From: Bacteroidota bacterium
Lineage (GTDB): Bacteria > Bacteroidota > Bacteroidia > UKL13-3
Assembly (NCBI GenBank): GCA_030699355.1
Contig: JAUYMZ010000428.1
Location: 1 to 39,526 of the forward strand
DNA length: 39,526 nucleotides
Reading direction: 5' to 3'
Shown: positions 9,217-34,708 of the stretch, piece after piece
Layout of the letters: each line of letters opens with the position of its first letter
Position numbering within the stretch: the stretch's first letter is position 1
Translations under genes and position numbers: made by a program
The notes under the pieces: model-generated
What the model saw: the letters and a program-made list of their open reading frames with translations, nothing else
Databases searched by the model: none
Told to the model about the DNA's origin: nothing

Positions 9217-10005
9217 TTACTTCTCCCCCTTCGCCTCATTCCAAATGGCATCCATTTCTTCGAGGCTCATGTCTTTGAGATTTTTGCCTAGGCTCTTGGC
9301 GCGTTCTTCAATGAAGGAGAATCGTTTGATGAATTTTTGATTGGTATACTCCAAGGCATCATCTGGGTTCAAACCAGATTTTCTGGCGAGATTTACCAAA
9401 GAAAAAAGTAAGTCGCCAAATTCTTGCTCTGTCTTTTCTTTGTTTTCGGTTTGAGCCAACTCTTCTTTAAACTCTTGCAACTCTTCTTGCACTTTGGCCC
9501 ATACTTGCTCTCCTGTTTCCCAATCAAATCCCACTTGGGCGGCTTTTTCTTGAATGCGGTATGCCTTTACCAAAGATGGTGCGCCTTTTGATACGCCACT
9601 TAATACAGATTTATTGCCTTCTTTAAGCTTAATTTGCTCCCAATTTTCTTTTACTTGCTCTTCGGTATCGGCTTGCACATTGCCATAAATATGCGGGTGT
9701 CTTACAATCAACTTTTCGCACAAAGTATGTATCACATGGCTAATATCATACAAACCCATTTCACTGGTTATTCTGGCATAAAAAACGATGTGCAACAACA
9801 CATCACCCAGCTCTTTTTCTAATTCTTTGAGATCGTTTTTAATTATGGCATCAGCCATTTCATAGGTTTCTTCTATGGTTAAATGCCTGAGACTTTCTAA
9901 GGTTTGCTTTTTATCCCACGGACATTTTTCGCGCAGCTCATCCATAATATCCAACAAGCGCGAAAAGGCTTGCAGTTTTTCTTCTTTGCTGCTTAAATTA
10001 TCCAT
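9217..10005 (-). CDS. mazG: Nucleoside triphosphate pyrophosphohydrolase MazG
   Basis: 262 aa with tandem MazG-type EExxE/D helices (TIEETYEMADAI, ELGDVLLHIVFYA; second copy EEL-EF-EE, EFGDLLFSLVNLA). Confidence 0.9.
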   Translation of the reverse strand: MDNLSSKEEKLQAFSRLLDIMDELREKCPWDKKQTLESLRHLTIEETYEMADAIIKNDLKELEKELGDVLLHIVFYARITSEMGLYDISHVIHTLCEKLIVRHPHIYGNVQADTEEQVKENWEQIKLKEGNKSVLSGVSKGAPSLVKAYRIQEKAAQVGFDWETGEQVWAKVQEELQEFKEELAQTENKEKTEQEFGDLLFSLVNLARKSGLNPDDALEYTNQKFIKRFSFIEERAKSLGKNLKDMSLEEMDAIWNEAKGEK

Positions 10006-11245
10006 GGTCTAATATAATTAAACCGGTGCGAATTTTTGGTTCAATCCAAGTAGATTTAGGTGGCATAATTAAGTTTTCTTCGGCTACTCGCTTCACCTCC
10101 TCCATACTGGTTGGGTATAAAGAAATAGCCACATCGTAATCTCCTTTATCTACTGCCTCTTGCAAATGGCCAATTCCCCTGCCACCATCCATAAAACTTA
10201 AGCGTGCGTCTGTTTTGCTATCTGTAATATTGAATATTCTTTTTAAGATAAATTCTTCCACAATGCTCACATCTAAATGCGCTAAAGTTCCCTGCAAAGT
10301 TGCTTCCCACTCTGGCTTTAATTGCAATAGAAAAGCCTTGCCTTGAAAATACAAGCCAAACTCTTTTTTATTTAAGGGCTGAACCGGTAAATGTCCGCTA
10401 GGGATTTTATGAAAATACTTCTTAATCTCCTCTAAAAAATCGGGACTATTCACAATGGCCTTATCCCTTACCAAACGATGGTATTCGAAAATACTTAACT
10501 TGCTAAAAGGAATTAAACATACCGGAAAAAAGTTAAATGTTTCTTCACCTGTATAATTTGGGTTTTCTTGACGCTTCAAATCACAAAAGGCAGCAGAACC
10601 TGCAGAGCGGTGGTGACCATCGGCAATATACAAAGTAGGAATGGCTTCAAAACGCGATTCCAACAATTGAATGTCTTTGTCTTCTGTTACCACCCACATA
10701 TTGTGTTTTACCTGATCTGAACTAATAAAATTATACTCCGGTACATGTTTAATAATGTACTGATTTATGAGCAAATCAATCGATTCATCATCGGGGTAAG
10801 TAAGCAAAACAGGATTGCCTAAATTGTTATAGAACTTAATGTGTTCGGCAATTTCATTCTGCTTATCGGTGAGCGTATTTTCATGTTTTAAAATACGGTT
10901 CTCCTTGTAATCATCTACACTGGCCATGGCAATAATACCAGCATAGGCTTGGTGACCTTTGATTAAACGATAGATATAAAAACTAGGTTTACTATCTTTA
11001 ATTAAATGGCCTTGGGCAATTAATTTTTGCAAGAACTCTAATCCAATTGGAAAATGTTTTTCTGGATTTTTCTTTTCCCCCTTAAAATGCAAATGCGGCT
11101 TTACCACATGTAAATAAGAAATCGGATTGTGGTCCATTTCAAACCAAGCTTGGTCTTTTGATGCGCCATCAAATGGAGTGGCACTCACCTCTCCTACTTT
11201 CTCTTTTGCTGGTCGTAAAGCCGCAAAGGGTTTAACTTTTGCCAT
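9998..11245 (-). CDS. DUF1015 family protein
   Basis: 415 aa. It starts MAKVKPFAALRP and contains YIADGHHRSA, the hallmark ADGHHR motif of DUF1015. Confidence 0.8.
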   Translation of the reverse strand: MAKVKPFAALRPAKEKVGEVSATPFDGASKDQAWFEMDHNPISYLHVVKPHLHFKGEKKNPEKHFPIGLEFLQKLIAQGHLIKDSKPSFYIYRLIKGHQAYAGIIAMASVDDYKENRILKHENTLTDKQNEIAEHIKFYNNLGNPVLLTYPDDESIDLLINQYIIKHVPEYNFISSDQVKHNMWVVTEDKDIQLLESRFEAIPTLYIADGHHRSAGSAAFCDLKRQENPNYTGEETFNFFPVCLIPFSKLSIFEYHRLVRDKAIVNSPDFLEEIKKYFHKIPSGHLPVQPLNKKEFGLYFQGKAFLLQLKPEWEATLQGTLAHLDVSIVEEFILKRIFNITDSKTDARLSFMDGGRGIGHLQEAVDKGDYDVAISLYPTSMEEVKRVAEENLIMPPKSTWIEPKIRTGLIILDHG

Positions 11246-11264
11246 TTAATTAGGTTCAGACAGA

Positions 11265-12230
11265 TTAATTACTAAAAAATTCTATTACCTTTTCTGCTAG
11301 CTCTAAGCTAATTCTATTTTGAGCCTCTTTGGTACTGCCGCCTACGTGCGGACTTAAAGAAACATGTGGATGTTGCAAAATGGCCATATTCACTGGAGGT
11401 TCTTTTTCGAACACGTCTAAACCAGCAAAAGATACTTGTCCGCTTTCTAAAGCAGCCAATAAATCTGACTCGCTGATAACACCGCCACGCGAGCAATTTA
11501 CCAAACCAACACCTTTTTTCATTTTGGCCATTTTATCGGCATCAATAGGTGCTTTTTCGCCCTCGTTAAAAGGAATATGAAAAGTTATAAAATCACTTTG
11601 AGAAATTACCGATTGCTCACTAACCGTATTTATGCTCACCTTTACACGAGAATTGACTCCAAGCATAGGAAGGTTAAGTGCTAAATCTACGGTATCTACG
11701 TATGGGTCGAAAGCCAATACCTTCATGCCTAAACCCACGGCAATTTTAGCTACCTCCTGACCAATTCTTCCAAAGCCATAAACACCCATGGTTTTGCCTT
11801 GTAATTCTATAGCATTAGAGGCCGTTTTTTTGAGTTCAGCAAAACGCGTATTGCCCTCTGTTGGCATAATTCTGTTGGTATGTTGCAAGAAACGAATGCC
11901 CGAAAACAAGTGAGCAAACACCAATTCGGCCACACTTATAGAAGATGAAGCAGGCGTGTTAATTACCTTAATACCCTTTTGTTTGGCATAATCTACATCA
12001 ATATTATCCATACCCACACCACCGCGGCCAATAAGCTTTAGGTTAGGACAAGCTTCAATTAAATCTTTACGCACTTTGGTAGCAGAACGCACCAAAATAG
12101 CATCAAAATTTTTGAGTTCAGTGATTAAATTCTCTTGGGCAATTTTCTCGGTTACCACCTCAAAACCTGCGGCCTCAAGCATGGCTTTTCCGCTGGCATC
12201 AATGCCATCGTTGGCTAAAATTCTTGTCAT
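11265..12230 (-). CDS. serA: D-3-phosphoglycerate dehydrogenase (D-2-hydroxyacid dehydrogenase family)
   Basis: NAD-binding GVYGFGRIGQEVA and catalytic-region motifs (NCSRGG, HVGGST). It is adjacent to serC. Confidence 0.85.
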   Translation of the reverse strand: MTRILANDGIDASGKAMLEAAGFEVVTEKIAQENLITELKNFDAILVRSATKVRKDLIEACPNLKLIGRGGVGMDNIDVDYAKQKGIKVINTPASSSISVAELVFAHLFSGIRFLQHTNRIMPTEGNTRFAELKKTASNAIELQGKTMGVYGFGRIGQEVAKIAVGLGMKVLAFDPYVDTVDLALNLPMLGVNSRVKVSINTVSEQSVISQSDFITFHIPFNEGEKAPIDADKMAKMKKGVGLVNCSRGGVISESDLLAALESGQVSFAGLDVFEKEPPVNMAILQHPHVSLSPHVGGSTKEAQNRISLELAEKVIEFFSN

Positions 12231-12242
12231 TATTTATTCTAA

Positions 12243-13313
12243 TTATGCGTTTGCTTTTTCAAAATCTTGCATGGCACTTACCAATGCTTGCACACTCTCT
12301 AATTCTAGGGCATTGTATAAAGAGGCACGTAAACCACCCACAGAACGGTGACCTTTTAAACCACTTAAGTGGCGAGATTCGCAGAACTTTAAGAAATCTG
12401 ATTCTAGGTTTTTATCTGTAAGTACAAAATTTACGTTCATTCTGCTTCTATCTTCAGGCACTACAGTACCAACAAAAAGTGGGTTTCTATCGATTTCGGC
12501 GTATAATAAATCTGCTTTGGCTTTGTTTCTAACTTCCATAGCCTCTAAGCCAATAGATTTAATCCAACGCAAGGTATGCATACAAACAAAAATAGCAAAT
12601 ACGCTTGGTGTATTATACATGCTACCATTTTCTATATGTATTTTATAATTAAGCATGGTTGGCACTTTTTCGTTGGCTTTTTCTAGCAATGATTTTTTAA
12701 TGATAACCAAAGTTGTTCCAGCCGGACCCATATTCTTTTGGGCACCTGCATAAATCATATCAAATTGAGAAGCATCAAAAGGTCGGCTAAAAATATCCGA
12801 ACTCATATCGCAAATTAAAGGTACAGGTGATGTGGGAAATTCGAACATTTCTGTACCATAAATAGTGTTATTGCTGGTGCAATGGTAATACGCGGCATCA
12901 GCAGGTATGGTATAATCTTTCGGTATATAATTAAAGTTCTTGTCTTCGCTGCTGGCCAACACATTTACATTTCCGAACATCTTGGCTTCTTTAATGGCTC
13001 TACCAGCCCAAACACCGGTGTTCACATAAGCAGCAGTTCGGCCTGAACCTAAAAAGTTCATTGGAATCATATCAAATTGCAAGCTGGCACCGCCTTGCAA
13101 AAACACCACTTCATAATCGGCACTTAGGTTTAAAATATCTTTTACCAATTGAACAGCCTCGGCAACCACTGCTTCATATTCTTTGCTGCGGTGCGAAACT
13201 TCTATCAAAGATAAATTGGTACCAGAAAAATTCTGAAGGGCCTCAATACTGGCGTCTATGGCTGATTGAGGTAAAATTGCCGGCCCGGCCGAAAAATTGT
13301 GTACTTTAGTCAT
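12243..13313 (-). CDS. serC: Phosphoserine aminotransferase
   Basis: N-terminal NFSAGPAILPQ and YAGAQKN (PLP-lysine region), both typical of SerC. Confidence 0.95.
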   Translation of the reverse strand: MTKVHNFSAGPAILPQSAIDASIEALQNFSGTNLSLIEVSHRSKEYEAVVAEAVQLVKDILNLSADYEVVFLQGGASLQFDMIPMNFLGSGRTAAYVNTGVWAGRAIKEAKMFGNVNVLASSEDKNFNYIPKDYTIPADAAYYHCTSNNTIYGTEMFEFPTSPVPLICDMSSDIFSRPFDASQFDMIYAGAQKNMGPAGTTLVIIKKSLLEKANEKVPTMLNYKIHIENGSMYNTPSVFAIFVCMHTLRWIKSIGLEAMEVRNKAKADLLYAEIDRNPLFVGTVVPEDRSRMNVNFVLTDKNLESDFLKFCESRHLSGLKGHRSVGGLRASLYNALELESVQALVSAMQDFEKANA

Positions 13314-15108: not shown

Positions 15109-15250
15109 GTTTACGCAACCTAGATAAATATTGAATTGACTTATATAAATAAATTATTATTTTGCTCACCCAAAAGAAACAAAACTTTGAGGCATCAAAT
15201 GATGTTTCATGTTTTGGTTCGAACCGAAAAAAATAAACAGAAATAGATAT

Positions 15251-17479
15251 ATGAAAAAGTTATTACTAGCTGGAGCCTTTTTAATTGCTACCATGAGCGG
15301 ATTTGCTCAGGTAAAAAACCACTCTTGTGGCACAGATGAACACTTGCAAATTCAAATGCAATCGCAACCGGAATTAAAACTCGAAAAAGAAAAGTTTGAA
15401 TCCAACATGCGAGAAGCCATGAAAAATTACAAGCCATCTGATTACAAAACCAAACAGGGCATGCAAAAAAAAGCCGGACCAAAATATATTATTCCGGTTG
15501 TGGTGCATGTTTTTCATGCCAATGGAAACGAAAATATCAGTGATGCTCAAATTAATGCTGAAATTGCATTTATGAATAGGGCTTTTAATAATACGGATCC
15601 AGATAGCACATTTAGAAGAAAAGGTGAATTTATTACCCCTTCTGGAGATACCAATTATTATGATTTTAAAGATTTAGCCGCAGACTCTGAAATAGAATTT
15701 AGATTAGCTAAAAAAGACCCACAGGGTAATTGCACAAACGGAATTGTAAGAATTTATACTCCCTTAACCAACAAAGGAAATGATGAATTAAAAAAGACCA
15801 GTGTTTGGGATACAAAAAAGTATTTCAACATGTGGATAGTAAAGTCTATCAATAGAGGAAACACCATTGGTATTGCCGGATATGCTCAGTTTCCTTTTGG
15901 ACCAGGTGGAGGTGCCTCTACAGATGGAATTATGGTAATGAGTCAATATTTTGGAACCAATGACGAAACAGGAACACATGAAGTTGGTCACTGGTTAGGT
16001 TTATACCATCCTTTTCAAATTAGCACTGATAGTTGTGGTTTAGATGGCGATGGAGTGATGGATACTCCTCCTACCTATTTCAACCCTACCACCTCAGAAC
16101 CATTGCGCAACAGGTGTAATAATAAAAACTTTAATACTTGCTCTACAGAAAAGCCAGACCTTCCAGATATGCAAGAAAATTACATGGATTACTTTACAGG
16201 TGCTTGCGCAAGTAACATGTTTACTTTAGAACAAAAAGCCAGAATGCATACTGTATTGAATAATATTCGTATTCCACTTTGGTCGCCGCAAAACCTTGCA
16301 TTCACTGGGGTAGATGGTTCTGTTACAACACCTTGTCCGCCAGTAGCTGCATTTAACTCGCCAGGTAGAACCATTTGCGCTGGTAATAGAGCTCAGTTTA
16401 TCGACTTCTCATACGGTGGTACCATTACAACATATGAGTGGACTTTTGAAGGCGGAGAGCCAGCAACTTTCACAGGTAAAACTCCTCCTCAAATTTTATA
16501 TAATACTCCAGGTCAATATAATGTTACCTTAAAGGTAACAGGTCCTAACGGAACCAGAACAGCCACTTTAGAAAAATATATCAACGTAATTCCTGCTAGC
16601 AGTCAGTTACCAGCTGGTTATTACACAGCCGATTGGTGGTACCAAAACAATTATGAGGCGCAAGGTTGGACATTTGAATACGAAAATCCGTTTAACAAAT
16701 TCAGAAGATTTGGTGTATCATACAATCAAAATGTTTCTATGTTATACCCTAGAGATCCTTTTAACATTAACAAATCTGTAGGTACTTTGAGTTCATTGAT
16801 ATCTCCAGCCTTTGATTTTACCGGACAGTCTGGTGCTTATTTTAGGTTTAATTATGCATTTGCCCAAGGAACCTTAGGTGCAAATCTTGGTGGTGGAAAT
16901 ACTAAAGATGAATTAAAAGTTTATACTTCTGTTGATTGTGGCAGAACTTGGATAAGCAGAGTTACTTATTCTGATGGCGGAACAAACGGAATTTCTACCA
17001 TTGGAACGGGCGCTGCTGGTACCTTAGCAAATAGCATCGATTTTATTCCTGCAAACCAAAGCAAATGGAAAACGGTTACCCTATCTGGCGGACAAATACC
17101 GAATAGTAATAATGTTCGTTTTAAAATTGAGTTTAAATACCAAGGTGGTAACAACTTTTATTTAGACAATGTGCATACCGGTTTAACGACAGGATTGAGT
17201 AACGAAAACTTAGCTGAGGCCATTGGATTTAAAGTTCAACCTAATCCATTTAACGTAAATACACAATTGCATTATGATTTAAGAAACGCAGAAGAGGTTA
17301 GCATTCGTGTAATGGATATTTTAGGAAAAGACAAAGGAATGGTATTCGAAGGCATGCAACAAGCCGGAACACAAACGGTAGAAATTAGCAAAAACGCCAT
17401 GCAATTAATTCCTGGAATGTATTTGGTTCAAGTAAAAATTGGACAAAACAGCTTCACACAAAAAATAATTGTAGAATAA
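15251..17479 (+). CDS. Secreted M43 (pappalysin/cytophagalysin-like) zinc metalloprotease with a PKD domain and a T9SS C-terminal sorting domain
   Basis: HEVGHWLGLYH (HExxHxxGxxH), NYMDY Met-turn region, PKD-like segment (YEWTFEGGEP...YNVTLKVTGPNG) and a C-terminal tail (VQPNPFNVNTQLHYDL...YLVQVKIG...QKIIVE) typical of the Por sorting domain. I place the start at MKKLLLAGAFL (signal peptide) rather than at 15209. Confidence 0.85.
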   Translation: MKKLLLAGAFLIATMSGFAQVKNHSCGTDEHLQIQMQSQPELKLEKEKFESNMREAMKNYKPSDYKTKQGMQKKAGPKYIIPVVVHVFHANGNENISDAQINAEIAFMNRAFNNTDPDSTFRRKGEFITPSGDTNYYDFKDLAADSEIEFRLAKKDPQGNCTNGIVRIYTPLTNKGNDELKKTSVWDTKKYFNMWIVKSINRGNTIGIAGYAQFPFGPGGGASTDGIMVMSQYFGTNDETGTHEVGHWLGLYHPFQISTDSCGLDGDGVMDTPPTYFNPTTSEPLRNRCNNKNFNTCSTEKPDLPDMQENYMDYFTGACASNMFTLEQKARMHTVLNNIRIPLWSPQNLAFTGVDGSVTTPCPPVAAFNSPGRTICAGNRAQFIDFSYGGTITTYEWTFEGGEPATFTGKTPPQILYNTPGQYNVTLKVTGPNGTRTATLEKYINVIPASSQLPAGYYTADWWYQNNYEAQGWTFEYENPFNKFRRFGVSYNQNVSMLYPRDPFNINKSVGTLSSLISPAFDFTGQSGAYFRFNYAFAQGTLGANLGGGNTKDELKVYTSVDCGRTWISRVTYSDGGTNGISTIGTGAAGTLANSIDFIPANQSKWKTVTLSGGQIPNSNNVRFKIEFKYQGGNNFYLDNVHTGLTTGLSNENLAEAIGFKVQPNPFNVNTQLHYDLRNAEEVSIRVMDILGKDKGMVFEGMQQAGTQTVEISKNAMQLIPGMYLVQVKIGQNSFTQKIIVE

Positions 17480-20373: not shown

Positions 20374-20423
20374 TTGCCACGAATGCACGAATATCTTTTG
20401 GCCTGCGGCGGGTATGTATATTG
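20374..20423 (+). repeat. REP-like cluster, copy B (left arm of an inverted pair)
   Basis: TTGCCACGAATGCACGAATATCTTTTGGCCTGCGGCGGGTATGTATATTG. About 90 percent identical by eye to the reverse complement of 20962..21010. Confidence 0.8.
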
Positions 20424-20438
20424 ATACGAACCTATTTT

Positions 20439-20469
20439 GCCAGCAGCTAGAGGCCAGCAGCTAGAGGCC
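20439..20469. repeat. Tandem 14-mer GCCAGCAGCTAGAG x2 plus a partial unit
   Basis: Read directly from the sequence. It supplies the last codons and the stop of the 96-aa minus-strand ORF. Confidence 0.8.
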
Positions 20470-20692
20470 TTAACTCTTTAATCTCTCCTTGATGGGTGGA
20501 GGTATAAGAAACCAAAATTTGAACCAAAGAATCGTAGTAATTTTCGAGGTGCTTAATATTTATTTCTGGATGCTCTTTGTTTGGATTGGTTACCGGAAAT
20601 TCATTGATGTATTTAGATAATTCTGGATGCTTATCATTAATCAAAAGCGTAATTTTTAAAATGTCTTCGTTTAGTTGTTTTTCTGTTTTCAT
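20447..20692 (-). CDS. Small hypothetical protein (start probably at MKTEKQLNEDILK)
   Basis: ORF only. The C-terminal ...LRPLAAGL is encoded by the tandem 14-mer repeat, so the native 3' end may have been replaced. Confidence 0.45.
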   Translation of the reverse strand: MKTEKQLNEDILKITLLINDKHPELSKYINEFPVTNPNKEHPEINIKHLENYYDSLVQILVSYTSTHQGEIKELRPLAAGL

Positions 20693-20794
20693 ATAAGTAT
20701 AATTTAGGTTGTTATCAGGTAGCATATTTTTTATCACAACATTTTATTGCAAGTAAAAAGCAAAAAATTTTAGTTTGATTGGCTAGCTGTAATT

Positions 20795-20841: not shown

Positions 20842-20961
20842 CAACTTAGACCTGTTACATAAAAAAGATAAAAACTTACATAAATAGAGCATTAAGTTAG
20901 GTGGGATGAAAGTTGAAAAAAATGGCTTCTGGCTTCTGGCTCTAAGTAAATAGATTTGTGG

Positions 20962-21010
20962 CAATATAGATACCCGCCGCAGGCAAAATAGATTCGTGCA
21001 TTCGTGGCAA
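20962..21010 (-). repeat. REP-like cluster, copy C (right arm of the inverted pair)
   Basis: The reverse complement is TTGCCACGAATGCACGAATCTATTTTGCCTGCGGCGGGTATCTATATTG. Confidence 0.8.
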
Positions 21011-21262
21011 GAATATTCGTGGCAATAAATTCCTCATTTAGCTTAGTGTTGATTTATATTTTTATTTCGAAACCAAAAGTTAGAAGTATTTGGCGTAGAA
21101 TGCCAGATACAAACTTGGACAATTGATTTTTTGAATATTATGCAAACACCTTCGTAATAAATTGCAAAATACACTAAATTATTACAAACCATAAATACCC
21201 ATCAATTATCATGATAGAAAGTATAGCCATAATATTGTACCACATTTTTAATACAACAAATT

Positions 21263-22114
21263 ATGAAAAACTATTTTACAAACAAAGCCATGATTATTTT
21301 ATGTATGGTATTCATGGTTGCTCAATCCTCTAAGGGACAAAATTTTTATGTTAAGTTTTCTGGTGGTTATGGATTAGGATCTAGTCCAGATGCATTTGGG
21401 ATGAATAACAGTTCACAAACAGGAAGCTTGGAAACGAACACTAAAGTAAATTTAACACTTGGTACAGGTGTTAATGTTGCTGGTACGCTGGGATACTCAT
21501 TTAACGAAAATATTGGAACCGAACTAGGGGTTTCGTATTTCATGGGCTCAAGTTCTTCATTTAAAAGCAGCTATTCTGGTTCATTTTCTTCAGAATCCTA
21601 TTCGGCAGAATTATCTGGAAAAATGTTAATGGTGGTTCCATCATTGGTATTAAGTCATACCTTTAATAGAATTAAACCCTATGCTAAGTTTGGACTAATT
21701 GTAGGACTTGGTTCAGCCACAATAAAAAATGATTATGAAGATTTTGACATCTCAAATAATGACAAAGATTATGGAAGCACTACCACAAAATTAAGTGGTG
21801 GATTGGCACTTGGATTAAATAGTGCGATTGGTATTTCATATGAAATAAACGATAGAATTTCTTTATTTGGAGAATTGCAGAATGTTAATTTAAACTATTC
21901 TCCAAAACAAGGTGAGGTTACAAAAAGCAGCCTAAATGGGGTGGATAATTTATCAACACTAAAACCTAGAGAAATTAAAACAGAATTCACAGATTCGTAT
22001 ACAATAGATAGGTCGCAAAATCCTGATGAAAATGCGCCAAGTAAAGAGATTTCACCAAATCTCCCCTTTAGTAATATTGGCTTTAATATAGGTATAACCA
22101 TTAACCTTAATTAG
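21263..22114 (+). CDS. Outer-membrane beta-barrel protein (OMP_b-brl-like), stand-alone gene
   Basis: Signal peptide (MIILCMVFMVAQSSKGQ), then an alternating hydrophobic pattern rich in G/S/Y/F (YVKFSGGYGLG, GTELGVSYF, GLNSAIGISYEI). Confidence 0.7.
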   Translation: MKNYFTNKAMIILCMVFMVAQSSKGQNFYVKFSGGYGLGSSPDAFGMNNSSQTGSLETNTKVNLTLGTGVNVAGTLGYSFNENIGTELGVSYFMGSSSSFKSSYSGSFSSESYSAELSGKMLMVVPSLVLSHTFNRIKPYAKFGLIVGLGSATIKNDYEDFDISNNDKDYGSTTTKLSGGLALGLNSAIGISYEINDRISLFGELQNVNLNYSPKQGEVTKSSLNGVDNLSTLKPREIKTEFTDSYTIDRSQNPDENAPSKEISPNLPFSNIGFNIGITINLN

Positions 22115-22136: not shown

Positions 22137-22198
22137 GACCCCAAAATAGCTTAGACCAATAAAATTGGCATAACCTATTTTGGGGTCTTGTTTTTTTT
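22137..22198 (+). terminator. Rho-independent terminator
   Basis: GACCCCAAAATAG-(25 nt)-CTATTTTGGGGTC form a 13-bp perfect stem, followed by TTGTTTTTTTT. Confidence 0.7.
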
Positions 22199-22309
22199 GC
22201 TCCTAAGCTTATCAGTTGAGTTAAGCAAGTAAATCGGCTAAAAATATACCGATAACTCAATTGCATTACCGTTAACTAATAATCATATATTGGTAAATAG
22301 TGCCATAGC

Positions 22310-22317
22310 TATTTTTG
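22310..22317 (+). promoter_or_regulatory. Candidate -7 box TATTTTTG for the 22331-34708 operon
   Basis: It matches TAnnTTTG and ends 13 nt before the ATG at 22331. A TTG lies at 22290..22292, 17 nt upstream of the box. Confidence 0.4.
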
Positions 22318-24034: not shown

Positions 24035-27000
24035 ATGAAACCATATCTAGTAAGCTTTCTGTTGATTCTTCTATTTGGCAAATTTAGCCAAAGTCAAACC
24101 ATCCAATTGGTATTGAGTCCGAAACCCTCGCCTTATGTTTCTGATTGGACAAGCAAGAGAGAAACTGCGCAAATTATGGTTAGCAATCCTACAAGCAATA
24201 CGATAGATGCCAAAGTAAAGACCCAACTGTTTTTAAATGGAAGTACCTTGTATGCAGAAACAAAAACAAACGCAATGCCTATCATATCTATTAACCCTGG
24301 AATGAGTGTGTATGGTTCAGACGAAATTTACCCAGCTACAGCCATTCAGTTTCAAGGCACCAATATGAATAGCGTTTTACAAACAGGCAAAATTTCGGAT
24401 GGCGTATATACCCTCTGTGTGCAATTGGTTCACCCAGTAACGGGCTTAGCTTTAACCTCACAGCCGCCAGTTTGTAAGGTATTTACCATTGTAAGTTACC
24501 AAGCACCCATTTTATTATATCCAGCCAATAATGCGAGCCTAAACGAAAATATGGCAAGAAATGTATTGTTTAAATGGACAGGAATTAGTCCGAACCCAAA
24601 CGAACCTGTAAGCTACCGACTAAAAGTATTTGAAGTATTGGATGGACAAGCCGATATACAAGCCATTCGGAATAATATACCCATTGTAGAAAAAGACTTG
24701 CTGAACCAAACCCAAAGCATATGGCCTCACGAATTTATGCCTCCAGAAAAAGATAAAAATTATGTTTGGACAGTAGTTGCCCTTGATGCCACGGAGATAA
24801 ATTTTATAGACGGAGATGGTTTTGCACAGCCATTTATTTTAAAAGTAAGACAGCCACAAATGATGGGTATGACGCCTCCACCCAATAATAACTCATCAAC
24901 AAATTCGGGTCCAATTGCCGTTGGAGACACCATAAAAGCAGGCCAAAATGGCGAATTTAAAATTGCCATAACCCAAGTAAGTGTGGCCAATAATGGTAAT
25001 TTAACAGGCAAAGGAAAAGTTTGGATACCATGGATAAAAAGTCACTTTTTAGTTGGCTTTGAAAACATAAAAGTAGACTCAAATAGAACCCTTACCAAAG
25101 GAGGAATTATAGTGGAGAAAAACACCAGTATAAGTAACAACATCGCTACTTATCCGCAAGCATGGGCGCAAAGCCTTGTTGCTGGAAACTCTTGGATAAA
25201 CAACATGATAGATGGAGCTACCAATTATACCAATAATCAGATTAACTCTATTTCTAACTGGGTAGATAATAACAGCGGTTTGCCTCCCTTTAATTACGAA
25301 GCCAATGTATCGGCACCTGTTATTTCTGGCAACGGATTAAAACTCCCATTAGGATTGGTATTTTCGGGAGGCAATCATAAGTTTTTGATTACGGAAATGC
25401 TTTTTAAACCCAACGAATCTAAGTTGATTTTTTTGGTTCAGACCGAATGGATGGATAATGGCGTGGTAAAAAAGTTAGGATTTAAGGGCAGTGGATTTAT
25501 TTTTAAACCCAATAAAGTATTGTTTAACAATGGTAGAATTGAGTTGGTAGAGAATATTGGCTTTTTAAATTCGAACCAAAAGATAGAATATACCTTTAAA
25601 AAAGGCACATCTACCAATGGATGTTATTTGCAATGGGCAGATACAGGTTTGGTATCTGTGAACCTAGACATGGAAGTACAATTTACGAGAGATTGGTTAA
25701 TTCCTATACCATCTTCTAATGGCACCCAGCGCACAAAAGCTACCCTTGTGGGAAATGGAACCAGCATGCAAGACATTATTATTACTGGCAATTTAGGTGC
25801 TTGTGAATTTGTAAAAGTTAAAGGATTTAAAATAAAACAACCTGTAGCTATTGCCCTCGATTTTTCTGATATTAGAAACACCACTCTTATGCAATTTCCT
25901 AAAAACTACCCAGGAGATACAGGCGTAGATTGGCGTGGGTTTTATATACCTATTGCAGCCATTACCATACCTGAAGCGTGGACCAAAAACACCTTGCCTA
26001 TTCCAGTTAATCTATCCCATTTAATCATAGATAACATGGGATTAAGCATGAAAGCGAAGGCAAATAATGTGGTAAATTTAAGTCAGGGCTCTGTAAACAA
26101 TATGAATGCCAGCTTAGACTCTATAGAAATTGCGATTGTAAACAACTCTCTGCAATATGGCAAAGCCAAAGGCTTTTTGGTTATTCCTATTTGCAAAGAC
26201 AGCCTTATTAACCGAATGAAATATACTGCCACCTTTAACCAAAATAATGCCGATAGCGGATTGGAGTTTGTGCTTGTTCCTACACAAGCAATTTACACAG
26301 AATTGTTAAAAGGAGAAATTACCTTAAAACCAAGCTCTTCACTAAGCACTACATTTAAACAAGGCAACATGACCATAAGCTTAAAACTAGATGGCACCTT
26401 TAAATGGAACGATCCGAAATTAATGGCTACACAAAATCAATTAATAAGCGGATTGCCTGCACCAGTAAGGAACCTTGGTATTAAAGGAATAAAAATGGAA
26501 ATGGAATTTGAAAAGTTGAAGCTTGCCTATATCAATAATATGAGTAGCAATATACATACTGCCACCTTTGATATTGGAACATGGAGTTTTGCTAGTCCGC
26601 AAAAGCGCGCATTTAATTTACCCGTAACGATAGCCAACATCCAATATAAAACACTCTCAGTACAAAATTTACCTGCACCCAATAAAGAACTTTTTAGAGG
26701 GGCAATAACTATGGATATTATAGCCAATTTAACAGACGATATTGGAGGAGCAACCAAAATTGGATTAGCATTTGCGTTGCAAACAAATTTAACAAGCAAA
26801 AAATTTAAACCAGAATATAAATGCTCATTTGTGGATAGCCTTCAGGTAAGAATGGATGTAGCAGCTGTTAAGTTTGATGGTTATTTAAAAATATACGACA
26901 ACGATTTGATATTTGGAGATGGGTTTAAGGCAGAAATTAAAGTTAAATTTGTGCCCATTTCAGTTACCTCAAATGCCTTGGTTCAGTTTGGAAATACTGC

Positions 27001-28909
27001 CTATCAAAATGCCAACACACTATACAGATATTGGCGGGTTGAAGCCAATGCTACTTTTAATCCGGGCTTGCCATTTATTGCAGGAATAGGCTTTTACGGA
27101 TTAGGCGGAGGCGCCTATTACAATATGAAACCTATTAGCGCCTTGGTAGCGGGCAAATCTACCATTAGCTTTCAGCCCCAAAAAGGCACATCGGGCTTTA
27201 ACTTAAAAGCAACTATTGGCACCTATCCTAAAGTAGAAACATTTAATATGGATGCCGATATAAATGGCACATTTACACAAGGAAATGGCTTGGTAAAAAT
27301 TACCTTTAATGGCGATTTTTATGTGGCAGCCAGCATACCTAAACGCAGTACAGCTAAAATAAAAGGGAATGTAATTGTAGATTATGATTTTACTGTAAAA
27401 GAATTTAATTTATTTGCCAATGTTCATGTTAATGCCCCCCCTATTACAACGCCTGCTCCAGCAAATTTATCGTTAAATATTAAAGGTAAAGAAAACCTAT
27501 GGTACTTTAATTTTGGGCGACCATCCCAAACAAACACAGTTATAATAAATAATTTTAACGTTTACGAATACCTCATGTTTGGAAATAATTTAACAGATTT
27601 ACCCAACGGGTTTACGAGCGGTTTTAAATCATTATATCAAGAGAAAGTTGGATCTGCCCCCACCTATTCAGGGGCGAGCCAAGGAGGAGTAGATGATAAT
27701 ACTAAAACAGGAAAAGGAATGGCTTTAGGCGTGGGAGTAAAGTTTGACGACCAAATTAACAAACACATATATACCGGTACTTGCAGAAAATGGTCTGTAC
27801 AATCAAATTTGGCAGCGGGAGCCGAACTCCATTTGTCCTTTTTGGAATATGCAAGTTGTGGCAGTATTAATCCTTTTGGTATAAATGGTTACCGGGTAGC
27901 GGGTGGAATTGGCATGTATGCAAGGGCTAACGCCAGTGTTAAAGGAACCCCTAAAAACAATCATAATGGCTGCGACACCAAAAACTATCCCATAGCCGAT
28001 TTTAAAACGGGATTATGGCTACAAGGTGTTTTTCCAAACCCTACCTATTTGGCTGGGCGATTGGAGGGCGATGTTGAATTATTAGGGAACGATAACCTAA
28101 GCAAGCGATTTGAATGGGATTTTCAATTTGGTAATTTTTGCCAAGGAGCACCAGCGCCAGGTGTAATTATTCCAGATCAAGACAAAGCAGGCGATTATCA
28201 AAACGCATTGATACAATATGTTGAACCAAGTATCAATACCAACTTCCCTATTACAGCACCATTAGTAGTAAAATATGGGCTTGAACCAAATAAAGTATTT
28301 GATATTGGAGAAGGCAAAGCAGATGGAACAGTAAAAACACGAACTTTTAGAATGATTGTAAACACTGTAAAATTAGAGGTTAAAAACACCAATGGCGTTT
28401 ATTCGCAACTAACCATTGTAAACAAAAAAAACCTAATTGGAGAATTTCAATATACTGTTAAACCTCCAATAAATGTTAATGGTTTACAAACACTTGGCAA
28501 TAACATTGGTTCAGCTAGCAATTTGGCAACCAATAGTAATACAGGAAATGTAACAGCAGCTCCAAATAACTTTCAAGGACAAATGGTGAACTTTAGTATA
28601 CCAAACCCTACTGTAACAGCAGTTCCATATAACTCTCAAGGGCTAATGGTGAACTTTAGTATACAAAACCCAAATGAACCAGTGGTGCCAAATTACCCAA
28701 ATACACAAACCCTACCCACAAATTACTTAGAAAATAAAAAATCGTATCGATTTACGGTAACAGTTACCCTGCAAGAGTATAACCCCAATAATTATACTTG
28801 GCAAACAGCACTTACCAAAAATGGAACTCCTGTAACACAAACAAAAATTAAACTATTTAGCACGCCAAACCCAATTTCATTTAGCACTGGACCTCATTCT
28901 AATAAATAA
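24035..28909 (+). CDS. Giant secreted protein of unknown function (1624 aa)
   Basis: Starts 6 nt after the barrel gene. It has a signal peptide (FLLILLFGKFSQSQ) and an N/T/G-rich, beta-rich sequence. I recognise no catalytic motif, T9SS tail or lipobox. Confidence 0.8.
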   Translation: MKPYLVSFLLILLFGKFSQSQTIQLVLSPKPSPYVSDWTSKRETAQIMVSNPTSNTIDAKVKTQLFLNGSTLYAETKTNAMPIISINPGMSVYGSDEIYPATAIQFQGTNMNSVLQTGKISDGVYTLCVQLVHPVTGLALTSQPPVCKVFTIVSYQAPILLYPANNASLNENMARNVLFKWTGISPNPNEPVSYRLKVFEVLDGQADIQAIRNNIPIVEKDLLNQTQSIWPHEFMPPEKDKNYVWTVVALDATEINFIDGDGFAQPFILKVRQPQMMGMTPPPNNNSSTNSGPIAVGDTIKAGQNGEFKIAITQVSVANNGNLTGKGKVWIPWIKSHFLVGFENIKVDSNRTLTKGGIIVEKNTSISNNIATYPQAWAQSLVAGNSWINNMIDGATNYTNNQINSISNWVDNNSGLPPFNYEANVSAPVISGNGLKLPLGLVFSGGNHKFLITEMLFKPNESKLIFLVQTEWMDNGVVKKLGFKGSGFIFKPNKVLFNNGRIELVENIGFLNSNQKIEYTFKKGTSTNGCYLQWADTGLVSVNLDMEVQFTRDWLIPIPSSNGTQRTKATLVGNGTSMQDIIITGNLGACEFVKVKGFKIKQPVAIALDFSDIRNTTLMQFPKNYPGDTGVDWRGFYIPIAAITIPEAWTKNTLPIPVNLSHLIIDNMGLSMKAKANNVVNLSQGSVNNMNASLDSIEIAIVNNSLQYGKAKGFLVIPICKDSLINRMKYTATFNQNNADSGLEFVLVPTQAIYTELLKGEITLKPSSSLSTTFKQGNMTISLKLDGTFKWNDPKLMATQNQLISGLPAPVRNLGIKGIKMEMEFEKLKLAYINNMSSNIHTATFDIGTWSFASPQKRAFNLPVTIANIQYKTLSVQNLPAPNKELFRGAITMDIIANLTDDIGGATKIGLAFALQTNLTSKKFKPEYKCSFVDSLQVRMDVAAVKFDGYLKIYDNDLIFGDGFKAEIKVKFVPISVTSNALVQFGNTAYQNANTLYRYWRVEANATFNPGLPFIAGIGFYGLGGGAYYNMKPISALVAGKSTISFQPQKGTSGFNLKATIGTYPKVETFNMDADINGTFTQGNGLVKITFNGDFYVAASIPKRSTAKIKGNVIVDYDFTVKEFNLFANVHVNAPPITTPAPANLSLNIKGKENLWYFNFGRPSQTNTVIINNFNVYEYLMFGNNLTDLPNGFTSGFKSLYQEKVGSAPTYSGASQGGVDDNTKTGKGMALGVGVKFDDQINKHIYTGTCRKWSVQSNLAAGAELHLSFLEYASCGSINPFGINGYRVAGGIGMYARANASVKGTPKNNHNGCDTKNYPIADFKTGLWLQGVFPNPTYLAGRLEGDVELLGNDNLSKRFEWDFQFGNFCQGAPAPGVIIPDQDKAGDYQNALIQYVEPSINTNFPITAPLVVKYGLEPNKVFDIGEGKADGTVKTRTFRMIVNTVKLEVKNTNGVYSQLTIVNKKNLIGEFQYTVKPPINVNGLQTLGNNIGSASNLATNSNTGNVTAAPNNFQGQMVNFSIPNPTVTAVPYNSQGLMVNFSIQNPNEPVVPNYPNTQTLPTNYLENKKSYRFTVTVTLQEYNPNNYTWQTALTKNGTPVTQTKIKLFSTPNPISFSTGPHSNK
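28566..28691 (+). repeat. 63-nt (21-codon) tandem duplication inside the giant gene
   Basis: NNFQGQMVNFSIPNPTVTAVP / YNSQGLMVNFSIQNPNEPVVP. The exact 18-nt ATGGTGAACTTTAGTATA is shared at a 63-nt offset. Confidence 0.75.
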
Positions 28910-31011: not shown

Positions 31012-31809
31012 ATGAGCCCAGCATTACATGTACTTATTGTTGATGACGAAAAACCAGCTAGAGATAATTTGCGTTTTTTACTTGGCAAATTAGGGCTGAA
31101 CCTAAGCCTCGAAATAGTAGAAGCAGGCAGTGCACAAGAAGCCCGAGAAATACTAAATAAACAAAACATAGAACTCATATTTTTAGATATCCAAATGCCT
31201 GGTGAAGACGGTTTTGATTTTTTATTGAGTATTCCTCATTCTAAATATGCCATTATTTTTACTACTGCGTACCATCAATTTGCCATAAAAGCTTTTAGAG
31301 CTGGAGCCATTGATTACTTATTAAAGCCCATCGATTTTATGGAGCTGCAAGAAGCAGTGTTGAAAGCCAATATTAATCAATCTATTTCTGCTATACATGT
31401 TCCGCAAAAAATAGAAAATTCTGTTTTAAAAGACATTCAGCTACAAGCTAAATCCGGCCAAATTAATAAACTACGTATTGCCAATAAAAATGGATATATC
31501 CTGCTTTCCTTAGCAGACATAAGTTACCTAGAAGCAGATAGTAATTATACCATTTTTCACCTTATAAATTTAAAGAAAATTGTTTCGGCAAAATCGCTCA
31601 AAGAATATGAAGAATTGATAGAAGGTCAGGCATTTTTTAGAATCCATAAAAGCTATCTTATAAACCTTCATCAATTTAAATACATTTCTAAAACCGACCT
31701 AAGTATTGCTGTAATGAATGATGGCAGTAATTTGCCCATAGCGCGCAGAAAATTATCATCCTTTGAAGACACAGCTAAAGCAATGCAGCATGGAAACCTC
31801 TATCAATAG
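31012..31809 (+). CDS. LytR/AlgR-family response regulator (REC + LytTR)
   Basis: The REC domain has VDDE and LDIQMPGEDG (phospho-acceptor Asp). LytTR C-terminal region: YLEADSNYTIFHL...FFRIHKSYLINL. Confidence 0.9.
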   Translation: MSPALHVLIVDDEKPARDNLRFLLGKLGLNLSLEIVEAGSAQEAREILNKQNIELIFLDIQMPGEDGFDFLLSIPHSKYAIIFTTAYHQFAIKAFRAGAIDYLLKPIDFMELQEAVLKANINQSISAIHVPQKIENSVLKDIQLQAKSGQINKLRIANKNGYILLSLADISYLEADSNYTIFHLINLKKIVSAKSLKEYEELIEGQAFFRIHKSYLINLHQFKYISKTDLSIAVMNDGSNLPIARRKLSSFEDTAKAMQHGNLYQ

Positions 31810-34708
31810 ATTGCTGTGCCTTCTTGTCTTTGCCGTTTTCTGCTTAGGTTCAACCAAGGCCCAAGAACAAGTATTTAAAAACATCAGCGTAAAAGATGGG
31901 CTTCCCAGTGCTACCGTTTATTGTATGTTACAAGACAAAAATGGTTTTATTTGGTTTGGCACAGAGAACGGTGCAAGCAGGTTTGATGGGGTAAATTTTG
32001 TGAATTATACCACCAAAGACGGCCTCACAGATAATAGCATTTTATTTATGAACGAGGACCAAGAAGGCAGAATTTGGCTGCATGGTTTTAAAGGATTGCC
32101 TTGTTTTTATTTGGATGATACCATTTACAATGCGAGTAATTGTCCCTTTTTGGCAAGCTTACCCAAATGGGGTTTTGTGCTTTCTGCCAAACAATTAAGC
32201 AATGGAGAACTTTACCTTTCTACCGATATTGGTATTATAAAAATTATAAAAAATAAATTCGAAAATGTTCCTGCAAAATTAGACAATAACAAAAACAATA
32301 AAGCCAAATTAGACTCAAACTTATGGGTTATTATTCCCAGCAAAAAAAATTATAATAGATTGTTTTTCAACGAAAATGAACCCATTATTTACTGGTCGAA
32401 CCAAGGCTTTGTAGACCCACAAAATAGCTATCCAAGTTTGGCGAAAACAAGCATTCATAACAAGTTTTACGAACCTACTTTTCAAGAAAAAATTGGGATG
32501 GACTTTTGGATATGCTCCTATATAGATGGCGTGGCAAAAATAAACAACATACAAGCTAATAATCCAAAGGTAGAAGAATTTTTGAAAGGCATTCAAGTTA
32601 GCATGGTGCTTAAAGACAACGAAGGAAACATGTGGTTTTCTACCTTGGAAAAAGGTGTAATGTTGATGCTTGCCGACCAACAAAACATGAAATATTACCC
32701 ACAAGCACCCTATTTATTTAATGAAAATATCTTAAGGCTATGCAAGCATAAAAATGCAATTTGGGCCGGATTAACTAAAAACAAATTAGCGTATTTAAGT
32801 GCTTCCACCTATCAACAAATAGACTTACCCCAGCACAAAGACCAAATGAAATCTTCTGTATACGATATTGTTGTTGATAAACAGGAAAATGTGATTGTTT
32901 GCACATCTTTTGAATTATTTCAGCTAAGTAAAAATTTAGGTGTACATAGCAAATGGAAATGCAAGCCTATTGAAAATAAAAGGAAAAGTATTTCAACAAA
33001 TAATAAAGCAATGTGTATCGACAATAAAAATAGACTTATTGTGTGCGAAGCATTGTTTTACACTTTTTATAGTTTTGATTCCAAACGAAATACATACCAA
33101 TACGACACATCCTTTAAAATCAATAATAATCGACTATTTTCTTGCTTAGCAAGCAGCAGTGGAGAGGTTTATATTTCGAGCAGAAACGGACTGTTTACCC
33201 TAAACCAGTATCGACTTAACGCTTGTAAAATTAATAGCATATTAGGCGATGAACCCATCATTAAAATGGCAGAACTGCCCAACAAAAACCTTATCTTAGT
33301 TACAAGAAACAAGGGAATTTTAGTGTATGATAAGCAAAAAATTATTCAAACCTTTGGCGAAACAGAAGGCCTAAGCTCCAATATTTGTAACAAAGTTTGG
33401 GTTCAGAACAACCTTGTATATGTAGCAAGTGCCAAAGGAATAAACATATTAAAATTGGTTCAAAACAAATTGATTGTTATACAACACTATGATATTAGCA
33501 ACGGCCTTTTATCTGATGAAATAAACGATGTAAATACCATTGGCAATACCATTTATGCGGCTACAGCATCGGGTTTAAATAGTTTTCAACCAAAAAAAAT
33601 CAGCAAATCTAGCGGTCCGCCCATTTATTTTACGGGAATAAAAAACAATGCAAAAGAAATTTATCGCATGTCAAATCCAGTATTTAAGCAAGCTCAAAGT
33701 TCCTTAGAAATAGGCTACCGAGCCATTACCTTTCAATTGCCTCTCCAAACAGAATACGCTTACCGACTTGTTGGCTTAAACCCCGCTTGGAAAAAAAGTT
33801 TAAACAACCATATAGAATACCCCAACCTACCAGAAGGCCAATTTACATTTGAGGTAAAGGCAAAAAAAGTAAACAGCCAATGGTCTGAACCTATTCAATT
33901 TAGGTTTGAAGTAACTGCTCCCTTTTACAAAAAAATTGGCTTTATTTTGTTTGGGTACAGCCTAGTGCTAGCCCTCCTATTTTGGGGAATATTTGGCTAT
34001 TATAAACACCAAAAAAGGGAGCAAAGAAAAAAGAAATTGATTCAATCTAGGTTGGAAACATTAGAGTTTCAAGCCTTAAATGCCCTCATGAATCCGCATT
34101 TTATTTTTAATGCCTTGAATTCTATTCAGCAATTTTTAAATGAAAACAATGCTTTAGAGGCAAACCAATTTCTTTCAAAATTTGCCAGTCTAATCCGTAT
34201 GAATATGGAATCGGTGATGAAAAGAAACATCTTTGTGGAAGATGAATTGGAGCGTCTAAAGTTATACTTGCGTTTCGAAAAACTGCGCCTTTCCAATAAA
34301 CTTAGCTTTACTATAGAGGTATCAAACGAAGTAGAAATTGAGTTGCTACTCATTCCGCCTATGGTGCTGCAACCTCTGGTAGAGAATGCCATTTGGCATG
34401 GGTTACTGCCCAACAATACCATCCATATTCATATTCAAATTTCGCCTATAGATTCTCGGTTTTTCAAAATAGAAATTAGCGATAATGGCATTGGCTTCGA
34501 TAACAGTAAATTTATAAAACAGCCTCAAAAAGACCCTGGTCACCCAAGCAGGGGTTTAGATTTTATTAATCAGCGATTAAGCTTGTGGACCCACCTAAAC
34601 AATACAGAATTTAGCCTAGAAATAGAACAGTTAAGTTCTGCATTAAGCGATAAAAAACCAGGCACTCAGGTAACCTTAAAATTGCCAATGGTTTTTGAGG
34701 AGGGGTGA
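31790..34708 (+). CDS. Sensor histidine kinase: periplasmic two-component-regulator propeller repeats + Y_Y_Y domain + TM + LytS/YehU-type His_kinase/HATPase
   Basis: Signal/TM segment (LLCLLVFAVFCLGSTKAQ), propeller repeats (VKDGLPSATVYCMLQDKNGFIWFGTENGASRFDG), Y_Y_Y-like segment (EYAYRLVGLNPAWKK...GQFTFEVKA), TM segment (ILFGYSLVLALLFWGIFGYY), ALMNPHFIFNALNSI (His box), LVENAIWHG (N box) and ISDNGIGF (G1 box). I place the start at METSINRL, which overlaps the RR gene by 20 nt. Confidence 0.85.
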   Translation: METSINRLLCLLVFAVFCLGSTKAQEQVFKNISVKDGLPSATVYCMLQDKNGFIWFGTENGASRFDGVNFVNYTTKDGLTDNSILFMNEDQEGRIWLHGFKGLPCFYLDDTIYNASNCPFLASLPKWGFVLSAKQLSNGELYLSTDIGIIKIIKNKFENVPAKLDNNKNNKAKLDSNLWVIIPSKKNYNRLFFNENEPIIYWSNQGFVDPQNSYPSLAKTSIHNKFYEPTFQEKIGMDFWICSYIDGVAKINNIQANNPKVEEFLKGIQVSMVLKDNEGNMWFSTLEKGVMLMLADQQNMKYYPQAPYLFNENILRLCKHKNAIWAGLTKNKLAYLSASTYQQIDLPQHKDQMKSSVYDIVVDKQENVIVCTSFELFQLSKNLGVHSKWKCKPIENKRKSISTNNKAMCIDNKNRLIVCEALFYTFYSFDSKRNTYQYDTSFKINNNRLFSCLASSSGEVYISSRNGLFTLNQYRLNACKINSILGDEPIIKMAELPNKNLILVTRNKGILVYDKQKIIQTFGETEGLSSNICNKVWVQNNLVYVASAKGINILKLVQNKLIVIQHYDISNGLLSDEINDVNTIGNTIYAATASGLNSFQPKKISKSSGPPIYFTGIKNNAKEIYRMSNPVFKQAQSSLEIGYRAITFQLPLQTEYAYRLVGLNPAWKKSLNNHIEYPNLPEGQFTFEVKAKKVNSQWSEPIQFRFEVTAPFYKKIGFILFGYSLVLALLFWGIFGYYKHQKREQRKKKLIQSRLETLEFQALNALMNPHFIFNALNSIQQFLNENNALEANQFLSKFASLIRMNMESVMKRNIFVEDELERLKLYLRFEKLRLSNKLSFTIEVSNEVEIELLLIPPMVLQPLVENAIWHGLLPNNTIHIHIQISPIDSRFFKIEISDNGIGFDNSKFIKQPQKDPGHPSRGLDFINQRLSLWTHLNNTEFSLEIEQLSSALSDKKPGTQVTLKLPMVFEEG

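Follow-up and report, generated by a model that had tools for sequence, protein, structure and literature searches.

A giant β-rich exported protein and its outer-membrane barrel neighbour in a candidate barrel-coupled envelope cassette of Bacteroidota

The giant and the barrel encoded beside it

The window analysed here is a stretch of 39,526 nucleotides from a Bacteroidota bacterium (contig JAUYMZ010000428.1, assembly GCA_030699355.1), and this study concerns one gene within it, for a protein of 1624 amino acids (aa) that we call the giant, together with the genes on either side. The gene for a 565-aa outer-membrane β-barrel ends 6 nt upstream of the giant, and that for a 688-aa protein with Fn3-like repeats (the Fn3 protein) begins 2 nt past its stop codon (Table 1). 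No terminator-like site was found inside this three-gene cassette beyond chance, and none between 30978 and 31012. As set out below, gene order in other genomes pairs the N-terminal module of the giant (the N-module) with this barrel.

The open reading frame (ORF) of the giant starts with ATG and ends in ...FSTPNPISFSTGPHSNK; full-length homologs occur at 26-77 % identity, demonstrating that it is not a chance ORF. A first-pass annotation of this DNA, made from the letters without database searches, had seen a cleavable-looking signal peptide, and closer inspection bears this out. The N-terminus, MKPYLVSFLLILLFGKFSQS followed by Q, combines a lysine-containing n-region with a hydrophobic stretch of 12 residues and a cleavage site of the small-x-small type. 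Q21 is invariant in 18 of 18 aligned N-modules, in each case after a short hydrophobic leader ending in Ala or Ser, a pattern usual for signal peptidase I substrates in Bacteroidota. Since the earliest cysteine is residue 128, the giant has no lipobox and is not a lipoprotein, and a lipobox cysteine is likewise missing at the cleavage site of stand-alone N-module proteins. The composition (N 10.2 %, G 8.1 %, T 7.8 %, K 6.8 %, and 10 cysteines or 0.6 %) is as N/T/G/K-rich and cysteine-poor as the annotation had described it.

Searches with the giant gave no match to any characterised family: nothing at E ≤ 1 in Pfam and NCBIfam, no match in PADLOC or PHROGs, and 0 matches in a PDB sequence search with the whole-family profile (A1). 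A motif search confirmed that HExxH and the RTX motif GGxGxD are absent, as had been claimed; GxSxG, said to be absent too, does occur once (GASQG at 1213), inside a poorly conserved loop, and no catalytic motif was found. The annotation had also judged that the tail is not a type IX secretion system (T9SS) sorting domain. In agreement with this, the T9SS C-terminal domains (CTDs) PF18962, TIGR04183 and TIGR04131 have no match in the giant at E ≤ 1, and no Pfam T9SS tail is precomputed on any of ~25 full-length homologs, while the M43-type protease encoded elsewhere in the window matched TIGR04183 at 1.1e-11 in the same run. The giant is thus a genuine exported, almost all-β protein without a T9SS tail.

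In a collection of 5.8 billion clusters, ~30 proteins match the giant, all of them unnamed and from metagenome-assembled genomes of Bacteroidota, Kapabacteria and Ignavibacteriae. Most are 1,600-1,670 aa long and carry no precomputed Pfam domain (homologs P0002-P0026). Conservation and BLAST mapping split the giant into five parts: the signal peptide (residues 1-20), the N-module (21-~280), a short N/S/P linker, a core (~295-1385) and a C-terminal region (1386-1624). The core is common only to this small family and a few longer proteins of up to 3,959 aa (P0023-P0026, P0028-P0030), and its conserved motifs are DxSDxRN (607-614), ASxD (692-695), WSFASPQK (850-857), FYGFGGGA (1020-1027) and the invariant pair C1275/C1369. 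The C-terminal region consists of a small β domain, for which AlphaFold2 places strands at residues 1393-1475, then an N/P/T-rich linker with little conservation, and lastly ~65 aa that form a conserved domain at the end of the protein. Within this linker lies a short internal duplication, QGQMVNFSIPNP / QGLMVNFSIQNP (window 28574-28672, residues 1514-1546), which appears to be lineage-specific because the alignment occupancy there is 0.38-0.56.

To the core we applied AlphaFold2 (residues 290-1485, 26 sequences), which returned a model with a mean predicted local distance difference test score (pLDDT) of 77.8 and a predicted TM-score (pTM) of 0.45. The model is almost entirely β, so that the strand-like alternation noticed earlier was borne out over this range, and its strands are mostly 15-23 residues long and joined by turns of 2-6 residues; residues 883-1365 alone are predicted to form ~23 strands of 10-23 residues in long, strongly amphipathic hairpins. 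A Foldseek search of the PDB returned Deinococcus SlpA, LptD, the ApoB100 belt, porins and ushers at E 5e-5 to 1e-3, but with TM-scores of just 0.10-0.14 and TMt ≤0.32 even for small porins. We rejected these matches as a fold assignment because they are generic barrels and sheets at TM 0.10-0.14. A search of the viral BFVD library gave noise (TM ≤0.10). The core is therefore best described, at the level of a predicted model, as a large antiparallel β architecture with no specific fold match.

The 565-aa neighbour is confidently predicted to be a plug-less outer-membrane barrel of ~26 strands. Its AlphaFold2 model (45 homologs) has a pLDDT of 87, a pTM of 0.71 and 26 strand elements, with alternating long loops and short turns. 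In the PDB, Foldseek ranked MtrB first (6r2q_B, E 4.8e-10, TMq 0.57), which forms a 26-strand sheath around MtrA. Occ porins, SlpA, TonB-dependent transporters, ushers and LptD came next, and the TMt reached in the search with the 565-aa barrel was 0.41-0.50. Conserved barrel loops are NRVGIAPKYKW (106-117), YSELSxGDL (129-137), GDGF (303-306) and YPFMQTDR (311-318). Pfam assigned no family to the barrel, neither Bac_surface_Ag nor POTRA, with DUF5777 matched by two distant relatives only, and a PDB sequence search with the barrel profile (A3) gave nothing significant. The protein collection holds 101 homologs of the barrel.

Pairing of the N-module with the barrel

The N-module comprises two tandem domains. 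Conserved residues in its alignment (A6) are W38, C128/C147, P158, P163, W181, Y194, R212 and W245. The first-pass annotation had seen two N-terminal β-sandwich modules here; the tandem arrangement is conserved and stands, and the sandwich fold is likely, with weak Fn3/SusE-type similarity in the second half. Pfam found no family in the N-modules of 18 members beyond weak SusE in six of the 18 (best E 0.004), and a PDB profile search with A6 gave nothing significant, the single match being an Fn3 domain of Tie2 at E 0.13.

We searched for the N-module (giant residues 21-292) with phmmer against 1.84 billion representatives. There were at least 2,366 matches at E ≤ 1e-3, with 771 at E ≤ 1e-10 and 167 at E ≤ 1e-30. 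Among the best 150 of the 2,366, which range from 185 to 2,848 aa in length, ~144 carry the module at residues ~21-290, straight after the signal peptide. The module also heads many large, otherwise unrelated proteins, and among the passengers behind it are Fn3, Y_Y_Y, Ig and DUF928-like repeats.

The relationship to the barrel was determined by a genome scan in which the barrel alone served as query (the closer set, A4). Relatives were found in 194 of 185,579 species genomes; 80 loci from these 194 genomes were analysed, and all their ORFs were searched with hidden Markov models (HMMs), each made from a slice of the alignment of the giant. Seventy loci extend for at least 900 nt past the barrel, and in every one of them the next ORF begins with an N-module (70/70). 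Fifty-three of these ORFs encode the module as a stand-alone protein (~290-300 aa), for example in L039 (barrel 9893..11680, module 11677..12561), nine fuse it to other passengers (416-1,592 aa) and five to the giant's core; the remaining three are cut by a contig end. The loci contain 1,171 ORFs of at least 120 aa, among which 81 hold a full N-module: the 70 directly after the barrel and 11 extra copies, all in the same loci. The adjacency in 70 of 70 loci, together with the presence of the other 11 copies in those loci, demonstrates that the N-module travels with the barrel.

The reverse test gave a concordant result. Four giants that have the N-module and lack the core (P0027, P0032, P0033 and P0036) each have a barrel homolog and a gene like that of the Fn3 protein in their locus; for P0036, a protein of 4,141 aa encoded in a complete genome (CP030158.1), the barrel is 25 % identical (E 9e-27) and the Fn3 protein 22 % identical (E 6e-18). 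Gene order is again barrel, giant, Fn3 protein around relatives of the giant from Kapabacteria (L001), Ignavibacteriae (L003/L004) and several Bacteroidota contigs (the P0011 contig, L008, L009, L010, L014, L019 and L025), and three loci (L051, L061, L068) show the order giant, Fn3 protein, barrel, stand-alone module. Homologs of the Fn3 protein lie directly downstream of giants in L001, L003, L005, L008, L009, L010, L014, L019, L025, L091, L092 and L093. The core and the Fn3 protein occur together in eight of nine loci, and the Fn3 protein therefore travels with the giant passengers. In conclusion, gene order shows the N-module and the plug-less, predicted ~26-strand barrel to be a genomic pair, with variable β-rich passengers fused behind the module.

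Some barrels have more than one N-module client: three in one locus (L030), two in each of two Ignavibacteriae loci (L003/L004), and a giant together with a stand-alone module in L051, L061 and L068. In L030 (9941-20840), three N-module proteins of 416, 1,336 and 1,235 aa stand in a row behind one barrel gene, the last with nine stretches of RTX Ca-binding repeats (HemolysinCabind, E 2e-51). In the two Ignavibacteriae loci, a second, shorter N-module protein of ~546-596 aa lies between barrel and giant (8176-9966 in L003, 8147-9787 in L004); its module is 34 % identical to that of the window.

Regulators and other features of the window

Downstream of the cassette, 33 nt after the Fn3 protein gene, begins a gene pair for a LytTR response regulator and a Y_Y_Y/His_kinase sensor, both identified with Pfam (Table 1). 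Of the 80 barrel loci, 29 have a homolog of the regulator and 26 one of the kinase no more than 10 kb away from the barrel, and such homologs occur in L092 too (tblastn E < 1e-10). By a rough estimate without formal control, this proximity exceeds expectation from the copy number of the pair, and the two proteins are likely to regulate the cassette. In Chitinophagaceae, the operon opens with the regulators and runs kinase, response regulator, a 780-aa protein, a giant PKD protein (1,857 aa), barrel and N-module. The 1,857-aa protein upstream of the barrel was considered as a relative of the giant and rejected: hhalign gave 1.25 %, and the protein consists of PKD repeats.

Upstream of the barrel, a match to TAnnTTTG, the consensus of the Bacteroidetes -7 promoter motif, marks a putative promoter. 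A terminator-like hairpin separates the cassette from the gene of a small OmpA-like barrel (21263..22114); it was read directly from the sequence, the length of its loop having put it outside the terminator scan.

Table 1. Coordinates of the cassette, its domains and neighbouring features in the window
Feature	Position	Strand	Remarks
M43-type protease ORF	15209..17479		TIGR04183 T9SS tail, E 1.1e-11
Terminator-like hairpin	~22137-22205		ccccaaaatag ... ctattttgggg, with a long loop and a T-run behind it; lies past the gene of the small OmpA-like barrel
Putative promoter, -7 motif TATTTTTG	22310..22317	+	regular-expression match to TAnnTTTG; start codon of the barrel gene 14 nt downstream
Outer-membrane β-barrel (predicted), 565 aa	22331..24028	+	signal peptide, ~26 strands, no plug, no POTRA; end ...TYQF
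Giant ORF, 1624 aa	24035..28909	+	signal peptide, N-module, all-β core and C-terminal region
Signal peptide, residues 1-20	24035..24094	+	signal peptidase I cleavage predicted before Q21; read from sequence
N-terminal tandem module, residues 21-280	24095..24874	+	two domains of ~130 aa each; alignment A6
All-β core (predicted), residues 295-1385	24917..28189	+	~1,100 residues; conservation, BLAST map, AlphaFold2 and amphipathicity; specific to the small family
C-terminal region, residues 1386-1624	28190..28906	+	small β domain, variable linker, conserved terminal ~65 aa; not a T9SS CTD
Fn3 protein, 688 aa	28912..30978	+	signal peptide; unique N-terminal ~200 aa and ~five or six Fn3-like repeats
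LytTR response regulator	31012..31809	+	Pfam; starts 33 nt after the Fn3 protein gene
Y_Y_Y/His_kinase sensor	31763..34708	+	Pfam

The M43-type protease had been described as carrying a T9SS CTD, which the TIGR04183 match confirms; its start had been placed at 15251 and can be the ATG at 15209, 42 nt upstream. Because this ORF carries a TIGR04183 tail, the organism has a T9SS. Elsewhere in the window, a protein resembling DUF6088/AbiEi antitoxins is encoded at 18508-19119 (E 1.6e-49) and an IS200/Y1-transposase-like ORF lies near the end, at 38694-39290 (E 6e-7). Two imperfect inverted-repeat arms of ~85 nt (20363-20447 and 20948-21021, 84-86 % complementary) flank a minus-strand ORF of 96 aa (20447..20737, no Pfam match) upstream of the small OmpA-like barrel gene. 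This unit, in a long intergenic region, looks like a small inserted cassette.

Candidate roles of the cassette and comparison with known systems

The reading that we prefer, at a probability of roughly one half, has the giant as passenger in an envelope cassette, barrel-coupled and three genes long (barrel, giant and Fn3 protein), which would serve the export of the giant to, and/or its anchoring at, the cell surface. The export or anchoring step is deduced from the order of the genes. After Sec export, the N-module would dock in, or thread through, its cognate barrel, whose lumen, as predicted, belongs to the type that accommodates a protein in MtrB, LptD and the ushers, and the barrel would translocate the passenger and/or anchor it at the surface. 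The β-rich core could then serve as an adhesin-like or shield-like structure on the cell surface, for which the Fn3 protein would act as stalk or assembly accessory, and expression of the cassette would be controlled by the adjacent LytTR / Y_Y_Y two-component system. The passengers look extracellular, judging from their Fn3, Y_Y_Y, PKD or Ig repeats and, in one of them, RTX repeats (E 2e-51). The first-pass annotation had already suggested that the protein, if it reaches the surface, uses the adjacent barrel; the genomic part of this suggestion has gained strong support from the ~26-strand neighbour and the 70 of 70 loci, and the transport itself is a proposal.

Several observations weigh against export or anchoring through the barrel. 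Contact between N-module and barrel is a prediction, as is the side of the outer membrane on which the passengers would end up, and cleavage of the signal peptide was judged by eye, which we count as a weakness. The model of the core has a pTM of only 0.45, and no fold could be assigned to it. The coupling of barrel and N-module is not universal, since the barrel family's distant branch in Chryseobacterium lacks an adjacent N-module: in C. indoltheticum (L006/L007, 1715-11755) a distant barrel (25 % identity) and a homolog of the Fn3 protein (E 3e-33) occur with no N-module, and between them lie a SprB-repeat protein with a weak T9SS tail (Por_Secre_tail) and a PKD protein. These loci may link the barrel/Fn3 pair to T9SS adhesins. 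Finally, the stand-alone module is the commonest form (53 of 70), which fits the role of a plug or cap at least as well as that of a secretion signal.

This last point is the starting point of the main rival explanation, in which the N-module serves as a periplasmic plug or cap for the barrel, as LptE does in LptD and MtrA in MtrB, the core and the Fn3 protein are a periplasmic scaffold and nothing is secreted. Besides the 53 barrels that pair with a passenger-less module, the MtrB/LptD-like size of the plug-less barrel speaks for it, as does the fact that no secretion motif is known for the barrel. On the other hand, surface-type repeats occur in the passengers, among them RTX Ca-binding repeats, whose folding normally takes place in the extracellular medium; three N-module proteins behind one barrel fit a shared conduit better than a one-to-one plug; and passengers of up to 4,141 aa would need to fit into the periplasm. 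We regard a periplasmic insert as unlikely. Still less probable is that the core itself forms one or more membrane-embedded barrels, in which case the cassette would encode two outer-membrane barrels. Multi-barrel outer-membrane proteins are known in Bacteroidetes (PMC8346858), the strands of the core are long and amphipathic, and its best Foldseek matches are outer-membrane barrels (the 30-strand SlpA, LptD, porins and ushers). However, the TM-scores of these matches fall far short of the TMt of 0.41-0.50 obtained for the neighbouring 565-aa barrel, the turns are short at both strand ends, unlike the long-loop/short-turn pattern of that barrel, and the core is followed by a soluble-type C-terminal domain without an aromatic β-signal, besides the low pTM.

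The first-pass annotation had thought a TamB/AsmA-like architecture possible, that is, an envelope-spanning β-taco which moves lipids or aids outer-membrane biogenesis together with the adjacent barrel. A long all-β region of strongly amphipathic strands with one hydrophobic face, and a barrel gene next door as in tamA-tamB, would suit this idea, which the searches nevertheless make very improbable. There is no AsmA, TamB or DUF490 match in Pfam at E ≤ 1, and no TamB or AsmA structure is among the best 50 Foldseek PDB matches of the core; hhalign gave probabilities of 0.08 % for the family profile A1 against E. coli K-12 TamB and 0.14 % for the barrel against TamA. Moreover, the signal peptide looks cleavable, unlike an inner-membrane anchor, the barrel of ~26 strands without POTRA domains is not Omp85-like, and a patchy core family of ~30 proteins is unlike a housekeeping biogenesis factor; according to PMC12045153, Bacteroidota possess a TamB/TamL system of their own. 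It is equally hard to credit that the giant is an ordinary T9SS cargo whose CTD is too divergent for HMMs. The organism does encode T9SS cargo in the form of the M43 protease, the last ~65 residues of the giant are a conserved small β-type domain, and the distant Chryseobacterium barrel locus includes a SprB-repeat protein with a weak Por_Secre_tail; yet the three T9SS models gave nothing at E ≤ 1 where the protease was readily detected, and the conserved, family-defining element linked to the barrel is N-terminal, not C-terminal. A chaperone-usher reading, based on a two-Ig-domain protein beside a large barrel, was dropped in view of the absence of usher and PapD domains and the fusion of the module to passengers.

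Bacteroidota proteins are known to reach the surface as lipoproteins or via the T9SS, and the giant carries neither signal. Beyond the giant itself, we tentatively propose, as a wider claim that we consider somewhat improbable, that barrel and N-module constitute an undescribed export or anchoring pathway of Bacteroidota and related lineages of the FCB (Fibrobacteres-Chlorobi-Bacteroidetes) group: an analogue of two-partner secretion built from unrelated parts, with thousands of Sec-exported cargoes, the giant among them, that lack a T9SS tail or lipid anchor. None of the three families (barrel, N-module and Fn3 protein) is covered by Pfam, and in the literature on DUF5777, SaeA/Fn3, new or T9SS-independent Bacteroidota secretion and 26-stranded barrels we found no description of the barrel, the module or the cassette. 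If the barrel does export or anchor N-module proteins, a phylum that matters in soil, water, gut and wastewater communities would have a further route at the outer membrane, and surface proteomes could be predicted from a simple tag at the N-terminus. Even as a barrel-plus-plug complex, the cassette would represent three sizeable uncharacterised families of envelope proteins with a clear partnership.

Several known systems resemble the cassette in part. MtrB/MtrA and LptD/LptE likewise combine a plug-less barrel of ~26 strands with a small dedicated partner encoded next door; here, however, there are no haem motifs and no sequence similarity to MtrA/MtrB or LptD/LptE, and the partner is often joined to passengers 1,000-4,000 aa long. 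Among Bacteroidota, the pairing of SprB with SprF also places a large surface-repeat protein beside a dedicated barrel, and the PorP/SprF-like outer-membrane protein is thought to hold T9SS type-B cargo on the surface. A distant relative of our barrel even adjoins a SprB-repeat protein, but in the cassette the sorting element is N-terminal and not a CTD, there is no PorP_SprF match and the barrel is far larger. TamA/TamB and AsmA-like systems share the arrangement of a barrel gene followed by that of a very long β-rich protein with amphipathic strands; they differ in their AsmA/TamB domains, which are missing here, and the cassette has a cleavable-looking signal peptide, a non-Omp85 partner and a narrow, patchy distribution. 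Chaperone-usher pili bring together a large plug-capable barrel and two-domain Ig-like proteins of the periplasm or surface, whereas the present barrel has no usher N-terminal, plug or C-terminal domain and no PapD or usher match in Pfam, and the two-domain module is fused to passengers and is not a free chaperone. From the surface lipoproteins of Bacteroidota, the giant and the stand-alone N-module proteins differ in having no lipobox cysteine.

The closest likeness is to two-partner secretion (type Vb, TpsB/TpsA, for example FhaC/FHA), in which a dedicated barrel gene likewise stands beside that of a large β-rich passenger, a conserved N-terminal domain of ~250 aa likewise follows straight after the Sec signal peptide, and the passengers are likewise variable, sometimes with several clients per barrel. 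The parts themselves are different. TpsB is a 16-strand Omp85 protein with two POTRA domains (ShlB/POTRA_2), compared with ~26 predicted strands, no POTRA and no Pfam match here, and the β-helical TPS domain of TpsA (Haemagg_act) has no match in the N-module, which is a tandem module of sandwich type. There is thus no relation in sequence or fold; the likeness is one of organisation, seen in the adjacency in 70 of 70 loci. Because both the Omp85/POTRA barrel and the TPS domain are missing, we term the cassette an analogue of two-partner secretion and not a member of it. Should export through the barrel be demonstrated, the cassette would represent a new secretion or anchoring route; otherwise, it would be a variant of the barrel-plus-partner systems of the outer membrane.

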